Below are positions 5,377 through 55,470 of a DNA stretch of 64,000 nucleotides, piece after piece (within the stretch, counting starts at the first letter, position 1; every line of letters begins with the position of its first letter). Source of the stretch: Eledone cirrhosa (Eukaryota); the NCBI GenBank assembly GCA_964016885.1, contig OZ024743.1, forward strand, positions 81,468,001-81,532,000, in the 5' to 3' direction. Both the position numbers and the translations under genes were made by a program. The notes beneath the pieces were generated by a model that had not been told where the DNA came from, did not search any database, and saw only the letters and a list, made by a program, of their open reading frames with translations.

Positions 5377-6760
5377 GTTATACTTGGGGAGGGTCATATT
5401 TGTGTAATATTGCCAGAATTAATAACAGAACACACTCACTGTTTGGTTGGTTTTCGCTTTTCGCTTCTGTGTCTTTTATATCGGTAATCTGATATATTCG
5501 GTCCTCAATGTTGCCATTGACTGACCGACGGTAAAAAATAATACAGATACAATATAGACACAAACACATATATATAGTTTATCATAAATCTTTCGTTGCA
5601 CATCTGCAACATCGTCAGTGGTGCTATTGTTTCCTCCTGTTGAATTGTATGGCTACGCCAGTTTTATTCAGTCTGTCTATATATTTATTTCTTTATTTGC
5701 TTGTTTGTTTATTTTATTTTGTCTTCTTTGCGCATGCGTTTGCGTGTGTGTATAGTGTTTTGTTTGATGTGTGATGTGTGTTCGTGATTGGGTGACTAAT
5801 GTGTGTTTATGTGTTTGTTGTTATTGTGCTTGTGTATGTATTTATTTGTTTATTTATTTATTTTATTTTATTTTATTTATTTACTTATTTATACTTCTCT
5901 TAGGTCAGTGTTGTTTGTTTGGGTGTTGTTGTTATTCCATTCATTCTTTCTGTTTAGTCTTGGTCTTCTAAGTTCTATTTCACTGGCCTCTCTGATTTGC
6001 CTATCTGCTGGGTCATTTCTATGTTTAGATATTATTCTAATTTCTATGTTGTCTATCTTACCGTCATGTTGTTGTCTGGCATGTTCGTATAGTACTGATC
6101 CGTTTTTTCGTCCTTTTAGTTCCCCCCAGTGTTGGTCTATCCTTTCACCTATGCTACGAGCTGTCTCACCTATGTATGTTGTTGTCATGTTTCTGCGGGT
6201 ACCCTCTGTACATCTTATGCTATAGACTACGTTTCTAGTTTTACAGTTTATCCGGGGGTTTACCTTACATATGATACAATATCCTACTGGTACAGTGGGT
6301 TTTCTTAAAAGGGTAGGTTTTGCTGATCAGGGATTTTATGGTGGTTCCTGGCTTTTCTACCACCTTAATTTTTAAGTGGGTCTTTCTCAGGGCCTTTCTA
6401 CACTGGTTAGCTAATTTCCCTCCAGGGTTAGCGTCTACAAACATGACACTCTGGTATCTCTGGTTGTCGTACCATGAGGTGGCTTTCCCTATCTTATGTC
6501 TAGCCCTATCTAAGCTATTCCATGATTTGCTCCTGTATAATGGGCAAATTCCTTTCATGTCCAGTTCTATGAGGGTCTTATACTTCTCCATGGCTCCTTC
6601 GTATACTCTGACTCTGTCTCTTTGGTTGTAGCCAGAGAACTGCATGCGGTTGATGAAGTGTTGGATGTGTCTTTCCATTTCTGTTGGGTCGCACACGCGG
6701 GACACGTTCTTCATCACTCGTACCAAGTCTGCGATCAGAATATTAAACTTAGCACTACTG
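5377..6760 (-). mobile_element. 5'-truncated Penelope-like retrotransposon (RT thumb, Cys-rich linker, GIY-YIG endonuclease, 3' pLTR), frameshifted
   Basis: ORFs 6265..6948 (NILIADLVR...RMQFSGY...SVMFVDANPGGKL) and 5889..6188 (YIGETARSIGERIDQH...HARQQH...RQIREA...LNRKNEW); hammerhead in the 3' UTR; 3' end abuts (TA)n. Confidence 0.92.
5581..5622 (-). ncRNA. Minimal type-I hammerhead ribozyme in the PLE pLTR
   Basis: Minus strand: ACCA CTGACGA T GTTGCA-gatg-TGCAAC GAAA GATT TA TGAT; stems I and III each carry a mismatch. Confidence 0.7.
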
Positions 6761-6764
6761 GAGA

Positions 6765-8282
6765 CCACACACCACACACCACACACACCACACACCACAC
6801 ACCACACACTACACACTACACACACTACACACACTATACACACCACACACACCACACACCACACACCACACACACTACACACACCACACACCACACACAC
6901 TACACACACTACACACACTACACATACTACACACACTACACACACCACACACTACACACACTACCCACACCACACACACTACACATACTACACACACTAC
7001 ACACACTACACACTACACACTACACCACACACTACAGACACTACACACACTACACACACTACACACACTACACACACTACACGCACTACACACACTATAC
7101 ACACTATACACACTACACACACTACACACACTACACAATATACACACTAAACACACTACACACTACACACACTACACACACTACACACTACACGCTACAC
7201 ATTACACACTACACACACTACACACACTAGACACACTAGACACACTACACACATTACACACTACACATTAAACACACTACACATTACACACACTACACAC
7301 ACTACACACCACACACTACACACACTACACACACTACACACCACACACTACACACAACACACTACACACTACACGCTACACACACTACACACACTACACA
7401 CACTACACACACGACACACACGACACACACAACACACACTACACACTACACACTACACACCACACACACCACACACTACACACACTACACACCACACACT
7501 ACACACTACACCCTACACACCCTACACACACTACACACACTACACACACTACACAATACACACACTACACACACCACATACACTACACACTACACATTAC
7601 ACACACTACACACACTACACACGCCACACACACCACACACACTACACACTACACACACCATAGACAACACACACTACACACTACACACACCACACACTAC
7701 ACACACTACACACACTACACACCACACACTACACACTACACCCTACACATACTACACACTCCACACACACTACACACACTACACACCACACACTACACAC
7801 TACACCCTACACATACTACACACTCCACACACACTACACACACTACACACACTACACACCACACACTACACACCACACACTACACACACTACACACACTA
7901 CACACCACACACACCACACACTACACACTACACACTACACACACTGCACACACTAAACACTATACACACCACACACACTACACACACTACACACACCACA
8001 CACTACACACACCACACACTACACACACCACGCACTACATGCACTACACACACTACACACTACACATACTTCACACTACACACACTACACACACTACACA
8101 CACTACACACACTACATACTACACACTACACACTACACACTACTCACACTACACACACTACACACACTACACACACTACACCACACACTACACACACTAC
8201 ACCACACACTACACACACCACACACACCACACACACTACACACACAATACACGCTAAACACACTACACACACTACACTATAC
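6765..8282. repeat. About 1.5-kb compound minisatellite (CACACTA/CACACACTA/CACACCA)n
   Basis: Directly visible; fused to the 5' truncation point of the PLE. Confidence 0.95.
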
Positions 8283-8376
8283 ATCTCTATTTTTTCAAGT
8301 TTTAAATAATTATTTTATTGAAAATGTCTTCTCATTCTGTGCTCAGCTCAAGGTTTCAGTGTCGAATCTGAGGCTG

Positions 8377-8462
8377 CCATTTCTTCACCATTTCTTCACC
8401 ATTTCTTCACCTTTTCTTCACCATTTCTTCACCATTTCTTCACCATTTCTTCACCATTTCTC
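8377..8462. repeat. 11-bp tandem repeat CCATTTCTTCA (about 8 copies)
   Basis: Directly visible. Confidence 0.9.
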
Positions 8463-9664
8463 ATGGTTCTTCTCTATTGTCTACAAACCACACCCATATC
8501 TCATTTCAATCGACTTCATATTCTTTGCATCAATTATTCTCTATTCTGTTTTCTTTTCAGCCATTTCTTATATTCAATTCTTTCTTGTTTTTTTCCCCTA
8601 CATAACTTGCTTCTCTCTCTCTCTCTCTCTCTCTCTCTCTCTCTCTCTCTCTCTCTCTCTCTCTCTCTATCTATCTATCTATCTATCTATCTATCTATCT
8701 CTCTATCTATCTAACTATCTCTCTATCTCTCTATCTATCACCCCTCCTCTCTCTCTCTTTCTCTCTCTCCCTCTCTTCTTTCGTCTTTCCTCTTTCCTTT
8801 GTTCCGTTTCAACATCAATGCTCTGTGATTCTATTCTATTGCCTATTTCAATAATCTACCCTGAGCCGCTCTTGTTCGTTTCACTACTTCTTCTTCTATA
8901 CAGCAGTCGATATCATTCTGGTCTGCTTTGATAAACTCCTTTCTCTTACTTTTTACGGTTAGCAGCTAATCAGACATCGCTGCTCTCAAAATTGTCGTAC
9001 GACAAAGTTGAGCAGACGATCAATGTATCACTGTCGCTTTTCCTAAAGAAAAGCTCTACAACATAGCCGACAGTACTCTAATTATTCACTATTTTATTTC
9101 TTCTTCTTCTACTGTCGTCTGCAGCTTTTTTCTTCTTCTTTATCTTTTTATTTTCCTTTTCTTCTCTTACCTTCTTCCCTTTTATCTTTTCCTGTCTTCC
9201 TACCACTTCTCCACTCCCCTCCTCATACTCATGTCCAACCTCCTTAGTCAGATTCCTATTTCCACTTCAGCAGTGTGATATCACAGGTGCTGAATCTTCC
9301 TCAGTTACCTTACATATCTATTGATTTTACAAATCATAAACGTAAGTTAAGTCTTCTCACTCCAAAATTTGTTATTCACAAAATATATTTATATATTTTT
9401 TTTACTTCTTTTTACATCGATATCCATAATTTTAGACTATTTTCATACACTTCCCCCACACGATATTTAATCATTTCTACATAAAGTTAGGTACATATAT
9501 TCCGGCTCGTGTATTCCAGTACTGTCCTTTCACCATTCCGTGAGCGACAAAAGAATATATATATATATATATATATATATATATATATATATATATATAT
9601 ATATATATATATATATATAATATGGAAAACGAAGAATCAGTGATGCATCGGAACACAATTTATT

Positions 9665-9757
9665 ACGTATTACAATTGTTTCTCCGACGAACAGCTCGTT
9701 CTGCGATCTGTTTGTGGATCGAACCTGACTCTGGATTCGCAAGTTCCTCAGATACGT
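9665..9757 (-). ncRNA. Minimal type-I hammerhead ribozyme with enlarged stem II
   Basis: Minus strand: ACGTAT CTGAGGA [long stem II] GAAA C-AATT-G TA ATACGT. Perfect 6-bp stem I, 1-bp stem III with a palindromic loop, and a 3' tail running into (TA)n at about 9620. Confidence 0.82.
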
Positions 9758-54106: not shown

Positions 54107-54300
54107 AGGAAAAAGGATGACCCCGACGGCAGAACTCAAGCCGCTTCGACGGCTATTTCTGGACTCCAGAAATAGCCGTCGAAACGGCTTGAACTCTGCC
54201 GTCGGGGTCATACTTTTTCTTATTTCCCACTCTGCTACCCTAAGTATTGAGTACTCTGGTGCGTTATGGTCCATCTGGTTCCTTACCAGAATACCTTCGT
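54107..54300. mobile_element. Fold-back cassette retaining only the 3' half of a hammerhead
   Basis: About 55-bp arms around 54163; the right arm reads GAAA CGGC-ttgaactct-GCCG TC GGGGTC; tail carries GTATTGAGTACTC; (TA)n on both sides. Confidence 0.7.
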
Positions 54301-54804
54301 TATATATATATATATATATATATATATATATATATATATATATATATATATATATATATATAACTATACCTATCTGCAGGATCTGCAGGAATCAAAGCAC
54401 GACTGACAGTTGTATGGAGAGAGCGAGAGGTGTTTGAAAGCTGCAGGAATTATAGGCAATGGCCATGTCAAACATATAACCTATAGCTTAGTTCCGTCTT
54501 TACCGATAGCATCTCCTATCAATCTTACATCATGGCGTCCACACCGGCAACTATTAGCTCGTAAAAATGCACTTTCACTGAACAGCACAATCTATTGGCA
54601 TATATGTTATCTATACATGTGTATGTCTGCATGTACATATGTGTATACGCGTGCATAGCTCTTATATATGTATATATATATACATATATATATATATATA
54701 TATATATATATATATATATATATATATATATATATATATATATATATGTGTGTGTGTGTGTGTGTGTGTATACACACACACACACATACACGTATATATA
54801 TATC

Positions 54805-54990
54805 ATGTTTAATATAGAAATAATGTCTTCTACGGGACTAGAAATGTTTCAATCGAAAGAAATCATCAGGAAAGCTGATGTTTTTTTTATATGAAACAGT
54901 TCTAGTCTTATAGAAGCCATTTCTATATTAAGGATGATGTTTACAGTCTACTTATGTATTGATGATGTTTACAGTCTACTTATGTACTGT
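54805..54990. mobile_element. Fold-back cassette with a hammerhead at 54827-54873 (-)
   Basis: Minus strand TTTC CTGATGA TTTCTTTCGATT GAAA CAT-ttctagtc-CCG TA GAAG; inverted arm 54875-54931. Confidence 0.7.
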
Positions 54991-55049
54991 GGCTGCACCC
55001 GGGACTCAGAAATAAAACAAACGACACAGTACAATGAAGAAATATATTA

Positions 55050-55114
55050 GTTTTACGGTTTATATAGTAAGAAAAGAGTCATAAAGTTTCGGACGTCAGT
55101 CCTTCATCAGAAAA
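55050..55114 (-). ncRNA. Hammerhead ribozyme with a long stem III
   Basis: Minus strand TTTT CTGATGA A GGAC-tgac-GTCC GAAA C...G TA AAAC; a decayed relative lies at about 50740-50810. Confidence 0.65.
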
Positions 55115-55299
55115 TAGTATGGGAAATTAAAGAAGAAATAGAAAGATGGAGGAGACGGGTAGCGCGGAAAAAGTTTTAGAAATAATTCTTTTCTGTGTTC
55201 CTGTATGAGAATCTGGTAACAGGCTGGAGAAATTCCAAGAGTACCAGACTAATGGGTGCTCCTTGATATACACGTGTGTGTATATGTGCGTTATATATA

Positions 55300-55470
55300 T
55301 GTATTCCGATAATTTGATCAGAGACACACACTGTATTTAAGGTCGAGTGACGCAAATTCGAGTGATCAGCGGCCTTTAGACTCACCTTATCAGTGAAACA
55401 ATTGTTAATACTGTAAATAAAACCCTTTTTGTACAGACGACCAAGTTATTCTTCACTCTTTCACTACTAT
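55300..55470 (+). mobile_element. pLTR-like cassette with a variant hammerhead (55301-55411)
   Basis: GTATT CCGATAA...GAAA C-AATT-G TT AATAC; same family as 10660. Confidence 0.65.

Follow-up and report, generated by a model that had tools for sequence, protein, structure and literature searches.

What spread hammerhead ribozyme motifs through the TA microsatellites of the octopus Eledone cirrhosa? We addressed this question in a 64-kb window (contig OZ024743.1, positions 81,468,001 to 81,532,000; 35% G+C and rich in TA runs) of the 3.0-Gb assembly GCA_964016885.1, for which an earlier note, hereafter the original prediction, had proposed a large radiation of short, mostly non-coding ribozyme elements mobilised by Penelope-like elements (PLEs). 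Links to open reading frames (ORFs), TA flanks and motif counts bear out its PLE origin, its TA targeting and its large, diverse population. The reading that we consider probable as a whole is that the motifs lie in repeats set in TA runs, that 13 of the 23 motifs listed in that prediction belong to families that are PLE 3' ends, and that their head-to-head pairs likely arose through reverse transcription at both ends of the cut DNA. The elements are new families of known kinds, mostly ordinary PLE ends together with some retrozyme-like repeats.

Hammerhead motifs in the window and the genome

The window was searched with a type-I hammerhead descriptor made up of stem I (score of 4 or more), CUGANGA, stem II (2 bp or longer, at most one unpaired base per side), GAAA, stem III (at least 1 bp) and UH, and 20 dinucleotide shuffles in 500-nt blocks served as the control. 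At a score of at least 8, we found 14 motifs against a mean of 0.0 in shuffled sequence, a comparison on which the original prediction had staked itself. At a score of at least 9, 12 motifs remained against 0.05, and a stricter version of the descriptor retained 8 against 0.02 to 0.17. All 14 motifs have the core boxes CUGANGA, GAAA and UH in type-I order with stems I to III. In all, 14 intact and roughly 11 degenerate predicted type-I hammerhead motifs lie in the window, in short repeats within TA microsatellites. The density had been put at about one per 3 kb, which is too high for the passing motifs (one per 4.6 to 5.3 kb) and is reached only when degenerate copies are counted (about one per 2.6 kb).

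Seventeen motifs had been called complete. Twelve of these pass the descriptor (9665, 18164, 30791, 36167, 36346, 37991, 38211, 41003, 41321, 41552, 43978 and 45802), the motif at 23610 passes only with stem III waived, and those at 5581, 10113, 54827 and 55050 fail, their core boxes both being present and their stems broken. Other copies of the 54827 and 55050 families pass; no passing copy was found for the 5581 family, whose stem I measures only about 2 bp in all homologues seen, or for the 10113 family, with its one homologue. Among six further motifs said to carry core changes, five represent mutated members of families whose core is intact (10713, U4C and A15.1U; 55301, U4C and G8A; 18012, C3U; 24481, C3G; 42005, G12A), and the core of the sixth, 43177, proved intact; it is the partner of 42936. 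The motifs at 42936 (minus strand) and 23252 (plus strand) pass and were missing from the list. The diversity of the stems stands, with about 17 families in place of some 15, except that families A, B and B2 have a common stem I.

For the B superfamily, sequence conservation points only partly in the same direction. Stem II has changes on both sides in eight of nine pairs and scores above all 500 shuffles, in a 23-row alignment that covers this superfamily only, was drawn mostly from descriptor matches, keeps one wrong-strand row and has a control that kinship can inflate. The CUGANGA box, with a variable position 7, is kept in 27 of 32 non-redundant family B homologues that were gathered by their 3' flank alone. 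Rfam returned no window match at gathering score, and an E-value scan gave only microsatellite-driven microRNA matches among the best 150 of 316 rows. With the strict descriptor, other hammerhead strand orders were absent from the window and at background levels in the genome sample described below. Altogether, the motifs are a real sequence signal, from which self-cutting ribozymes are predicted.

To place the window in its genome, we sampled 80 evenly spaced 10-kb stretches (800 kb) at a score of at least 9. The sample contains 93 motifs, or about one per 9 kb, against 1, 1 and 1 in three shuffles, and at least one motif lies in 36 of the 80 stretches. Bootstrapping over stretches gives 61 to 130 motifs, which corresponds to about 350,000 genome-wide (228,000 to 487,000). 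The 12 motifs of the window are matched or exceeded in resampled 64 kb with p of about 0.19, and its density is therefore not exceptional. The 93 motifs fall into 23 to 28 sequence groups, and 65 of them have a strictly self-complementary loop III, a feature described as a sign of dimer-dependent hammerheads in the available text of PMC4209133.

Anchoring in TA runs, as originally predicted, is evident at each scale. A TA run lies within 150 nt downstream of 13 of the 14 window motifs, against 23% of random positions, and within 250 nt of 77% of the sampled motifs, against 22%. Past mapped 3' ends, a TA hexamer follows within 16 nt in 134 of 140 family A arms and 93 of 102 family B arms, where the background is 11%.

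Penelope-like parents of seven ribozyme families

Seven of the approximately 17 families are, as judged from sequence, the 3' ends of ORF-bearing PLEs: five of Hydra type (A, B, D, E and F) and two of Neptune/Nematis type (R and R2). Family B2 is related to B, and family I to F. The original prediction had tied only the copies at 5581, 23610 and 24481 to PLEs coding for reverse transcriptase (RT) and had seen a separate non-coding radiation in the rest. A search for linked ORFs, a check it had itself proposed, yielded ORF-linked copies for all seven and speaks against both claims, while A and B do keep a distinct short class. Its wording "retrozyme-like or very truncated PLEs" fits the best-studied families in its second half, and retrozyme-like multimers are a minority in the window.

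The exact ribozyme pattern of family A has 5,460 genome matches. The first 100 comprise 16 pairs spaced 122 to 290 nt apart, 18 pairs spaced 1,043 to 6,366 nt apart and one tandem, and all 18 widely spaced pairs and the tandem are copies of one 3.9-kb element. Its 821-residue frame carries RWT (RWT/RWI in place of RWK), DKT, YRDD, the linker CxCx5C and, at its C-terminus, an endonuclease with CxxC and CxH that lacks the inner cysteine pair; in the closest atlas clusters, some of the members have HTH_animal, GIY-YIG and RVT_1, and the PLE protein has a cephalopod homologue. In tandem copies, the family A tail lies directly upstream of the ORF region. Four sequence variants are common to long and short copies. 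We had also considered family A as a fixed stand-alone element of 260 nt (or a fixed unit of 420 bp) and rejected it: 29 of 30 loci had this appearance, but all were drawn with a biased query spanning the joint, and the unbiased ribozyme pattern led to long, ORF-bearing copies. Separately, a family A monomer (fetched locus L163, 1503-1761) is covered by DNA contigs of three other organisms; no RNA source was listed, a result that is neutral as to expression.

Family B, whose pattern matches exactly at 1,032 places (the first 100 include 21 short and 8 longer pairs), ends a second Hydra-type element whose DKT, linker and endonuclease are read in broken frames. [quoted passage not shown] The Hydra-type and Neptune-type frames do not align to each other, and an ORF-link test that used the Neptune-type protein only linked 4 of the 93 sampled motifs and none of the 14 window motifs, missing the Hydra-type parents. 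Long uninterrupted PLE frames occur at loci L150-L153 (up to 1239 residues, with an Asn/Thr-rich insert), which suggests recent activity.

An independent radiation of non-coding, retrozyme-like mini-elements, spreading through small self-cleaved circles, is the alternative closest to the original prediction, and we regard it as unlikely. It draws on 31 of the 93 sampled motifs, which lie inside five tandem arrays (L067, L094, L096, L120 and L124, with units of 310, 467, 556, 311 and 482 nt). These arrays are non-coding, have a hammerhead in each unit and, as far as their termini can be seen, share the TA flanks, the inverted arms (here multimeric) and the one-sided tail. It also draws on family O, permuted and more than unit length, on family K, which has no long head-to-head pair among the first 100 of its 825 matches, and on the sharpness of the short class in family A. 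A retrozyme has no coding parent, whereas all seven families named above have ORF-linked copies, and the variants that long and short A copies have in common run counter to a separate lineage. Tandem units are found in the five arrays and partly in family O, but not in A or B: an exact head-to-tail joint occurs once in A, in a copy that a fold-back insertion also explains, and never in B, which leaves a circular template for these two families unsupported. Only 2 of 143 A arms, in a set biased to full 5' ends, begin near the cleavage site.

The copies in the window are the following, with the strand given where one applies.

5572..5625, minus strand: atypical minimal hammerhead of family R2; both core boxes present, stem II of 6 bp and stem I of some 2 bp; fails the descriptor
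5955-6762: Neptune/Nematis-type PLE remnant of family R2, ORF pieces; the hammerhead at 5572..5625 lies at its 3' end
9665..9757, minus strand: family F hammerhead; one homologue (65% alike) follows a Hydra-like endonuclease end at a distance of 263 nt
10084..10363: old head-to-head pair of family G, arms 68% alike; motif 10113 has intact core boxes and an interrupted stem I
10661..10821, minus strand: degenerate copy of family E (U4C, A15.1U); elsewhere the family lies behind Hydra-like ORF ends
18012..18067, minus strand: family M hammerhead with C3U; five of six homologues shown pass the descriptor; no ORF link found
18132..18310: head-to-head pair of family D, hammerhead 18164-18201 on the short arm; elsewhere about 200 nt behind Hydra-like ORF ends
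23252..23339, plus strand: family N hammerhead; passes the descriptor; new to the list
23397..23690, minus strand: terminal repeat of family R with tail; minimal hammerhead 23610-23651
24350..30374: broken Neptune/Nematis-type PLE on the minus strand, with an inverted plus-strand piece at 29828-30369 and a C3G hammerhead at 24481
30663..31000: short pair of family A; the long-ended arm has hammerhead 30789-30859 (minus strand), the short-ended arm begins inside the ribozyme
36039..36460: short pair of family A; hammerheads 36165-36235 (minus) and 36344-36414 (plus); 82-nt tail on one arm; Hydra-type PLE 3' end
37860..38323: short pair of family B; hammerheads 37989-38053 (minus) and 38209-38273 (plus); tail of about 80 nt on one arm; 3' end of the second Hydra-type PLE
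40999..41067, plus strand: family H hammerhead; no ORF link found
41226..41386: head-to-head pair of family D; hammerhead 41321-41361 (minus)
41552..41639, plus strand: family I hammerhead; 11-bp stem II; 3' part like family F
41775..42570: family O repeat, permuted, more than unit length, partly inverted, non-coding and retrozyme-like; G12A in this copy, G in the nine other aligned copies, the full GAAA box in four
42648..43553: head-to-head pair of family C; hammerheads 42936-43024 (minus) and 43169-43251 (plus); no ORF link found
43972..44043, minus strand: family B2 hammerhead, about 73-75% alike to B
45795..45853, plus strand: family J hammerhead; no ORF link found
54802..54938: short palindrome of family K; degenerate hammerhead; 825 genome matches to the family pattern
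55050..55120, minus strand: minimal hammerhead of family L; degenerate copy
55294..55464, plus strand: degenerate copy of family E (U4C, G8A)

Several other repeats of the window were noted. The 3' halves of hammerhead families, truncated inside the ribozyme, occur at 44120-44200 and 50451-50558, and palindromes with no passing hammerhead at 21933-22130, 22456-22777 and 45536-45667; both arms of the second carry a half-motif of GAAA, palindrome and UH. A further repeat (18365-18550, plus strand; 1,503 candidates) has the block order cleavage site, GAAA, CUGANGA, which resembles the type-SGC order of PMC10085705. It has a 6-bp stem I in 10 of 10 aligned copies and a 4-bp stem III in the 9 others; stem II lacks direct pairing, an upstream strand could bridge it (by eye), and the repeat fails the strict descriptor. 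At least nine copies of a dispersed repeat of about 200 bp, which we take to be SINE-like (resembling short interspersed nuclear elements) and in which ARAGORN found no tRNA, include those at 3467-3608, 12253-12449, 21360-21814, 34291-34465, 38631-38720, 39066-39269, 56535-56639 and 59480-59654. Other retrotransposon-like frame pieces lie at 31571-32332 (minus; weak zf-RVT match), 61413-61877 (minus) and 62611-63910 (plus).

Paired ends and a possible insertion mechanism

The arms of the head-to-head pairs end at one of two fixed 3' positions, 60 to 82 nt apart: 177 or 259 for family A, 187 or 268 for family B, roughly 75 or 137 for family D, and 390 or roughly 447 for family R. Within a pair, the two positions are almost always combined. 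Of the 57 family A pairs found, 54 could be sorted by end type, and 52 of these combine a long end with a short one (p = 1.6e-13), while unpaired arms are 16 short and 13 long; in family B the same holds for all 35 classifiable pairs (43 found), the first B query having required the tail. For long copies picked regardless of their ends, the rule holds in 17 of 18 A pairs and in all 8 B pairs.

At their 5' side the arms behave differently. In families A and B, the arms of a discrete short class stop at a fixed 5' point, whereas all 18 long A pairs have two long arms, one of which (the right arm at L218) starts within a 5' repeat and continues across the ORF. There are also solo repeats between TA runs. 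The central joints vary, with 13 types in 29 A copies, several of them in both orientations, and nearly all B joints unique. Miniature inverted-repeat transposable elements (MITEs), that is, DNA transposons that have TA target duplications and long inverted ends and in which the resemblance to a hammerhead was inherited or arose by chance, would match the palindromic form, the TA flanks and the thousands of young copies. MITEs have symmetric, fixed terminal inverted repeats and a fixed centre; here the ends are asymmetric, the centres variable and the arms sometimes single or multimeric, and RT-coding copies have the same anatomy. The ORF-bearing long copies already largely refute this explanation, to which we give hardly any credence.

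The two arms of a pair appear to stem from the same source. Private variants found on both arms number 7 in 29 A copies, against a null mean of 0.3 (maximum 5), and 26 in B, against 5.1 (15 of 30 copies parsable). Of the variants confined to one arm, 22 were found in the A copies and none recurs (one truncated copy dropped), and in 12 of the 18 long A pairs an arm's own partner is its best match. Self-priming, in which one strand folds back to template the inverted arm (proposed in PMC3846280), would account for identical arms and palindromic joints. Since the fold-back arm must copy the first arm, it cannot yield arms that do not overlap; yet in 3 of 52 A pairs the long arm begins beyond the end of the short one, and three more overlap by 8 nt only. 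Truncation is greater in the long arm in 14 A pairs against 2 with the opposite arrangement, in a pair set that, for both counts, is enriched for full 5' ends. The complete 5' end occurs on either arm, which also speaks against fold-back, and we consider it very improbable compared with two priming events.

The preferred reading, two priming events, can be set out as follows. The PLE protein would cut a TA run, and each DNA end would serve as a primer at one of two sites on a single RNA. The cDNA from the inner (short) site would run ahead, the outer (long) one stalling behind or displacing it, and the two would be joined head to head through short homologies. Given its fixed 5' point in A and B, the short class would come from a short template RNA, likely a leader RNA started inside the terminal repeat, or from solo repeats copying themselves with the PLE protein. 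Since the ribozyme is retained whole in inserted copies, the RNA that was copied would have been uncleaved or re-ligated. Cutting by the ribozyme itself would probably require a dimer, in tandem transcripts; read-through transcription of a pair would give one long hairpin (predicted fold of -273 kcal/mol) that would silence it. Family O and the tandem arrays elsewhere may be retrozyme-like riders on the PLE machinery.

A stronger version seems to us an even bet. In obligate twin priming, one complex would start a cDNA on each cut end at two fixed RNA sites, producing the tail, the inverted 5' copy and the mini-pairs, and leader RNA would feed the same reaction, giving roughly 350,000 hammerheads and very many near-perfect hairpins of 150-250 bp.

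Several observations weigh against parts of this account. On the side of the ribozymes, only 5 of 16 folded motifs reach z of -2 or lower against shuffles, the minimum-energy fold of several of the 16 is not a hammerhead, and in the B superfamily only one of eight stem I pairs, and none of three stem III pairs, changes on both sides. As for parentage, within about 1.4 Mb of fetched DNA no ORF link turned up for nine families (G, H, I, J, K, L, M, N and C) or for family O; the D, E and F links are protein matches of 34-37% identity at one to three loci each; and the clades were called from motifs alone, Pfam and PDB giving no match for either PLE frame. With respect to the end rule, one long A pair (L224) has two short ends, and some longer B pairs have one very short arm, so that arm lengths are not always coupled. 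Finally, recombination between arms after insertion is a partial rival, which would produce shared variants and a flipped centre and could explain the centre orientations in A copies (23 versus 7).

Relation to known elements

Much of the general picture is already published: hammerheads in PLE ends, single motifs by the thousands and opposite-strand pairs in PMC4209133, and inverted copies, one-sided tails and TA bias in PMC8557442. We found no published statement of the end rule, PLE twin priming, these counts or octopus hammerheads, in a literature search that excluded supplements and most subscription papers; the available text of an octopus repeat paper (PMC13282606) does not mention "ribozyme". 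The parts of PMC8557442 and PMC11167929 available to us treat the origin of PLE tails and inverted copies as an open question. The long/short end rule is a likely clue to PLE insertion: young, very numerous copies offer a countable footprint of it, and predict one start site per DNA end. Such short palindromes could also easily be annotated as MITEs.

In the available text of PMC8557442, Hydra-clade PLEs agree with the elements described here in DKT, the RWK-like motif, the CxCx5C linker, the C-terminal endonuclease with CxxC and CxH, the hammerheads, TA insertion, the inverted 5' copy and the one-sided tail. They differ in size, the unit here being about 3.9 kb with a 3' untranslated part of more than 1 kb, against generally less than 3 kb as published, and in the tail, about 80 nt here against 30-40 for PLEs. 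Thousands of short head-to-head pairs also set the present elements apart, although the supplements of that paper may list these families. By its linker definition, R and R2 resemble Neptune/Nematis-type PLEs (DKG, a linker of the form Cx2-5CxxC, GIY-YIG at the C-terminus, a minimal hammerhead in each terminal repeat), with Neptune and Nematis not told apart.

The minimal hammerheads described in PLEs by Cervera and de la Pena (2014, PMC4209133) are alike in their palindromic loop III, the extra base before stem II, the many families per genome and the mostly single motifs, and opposite-strand pairs 100-700 bp apart are reported there for Schistosoma. The estimated count of 228,000-487,000 exceeds the 2,000-9,000 minimal motifs given in that source, with a different descriptor, as well as the literature figure of up to 120,000 retrozymes in axolotl. 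Animal retrozymes of the non-LTR (long terminal repeat) kind, for which an origin as PLE derivatives is proposed (PMC7229834; bioRxiv 10.64898/2026.07.22.740005), resemble family O and the arrays in their non-coding tandem type-I units and dispersed monomers; most window motifs differ in being non-tandem, and at least seven families in having an ORF-bearing parent. As far as the available text of the bioRxiv report goes, only one of nine tested retrozyme dimers cleaved.

The closest mechanistic parallel is Poseidon PAc (Frangieh et al. 2024, PMC11167929), for which the available text describes in vitro cutting and extension of both strands, two internal start sites that define the tail, and no need for ribozyme cleavage. 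The same features, including the uncleaved template, are proposed here on the basis of genomic copies. For Poseidon, the two strands are reported not to differ in their start site, whereas the genomic pairs of E. cirrhosa show, almost without exception, one site per end.

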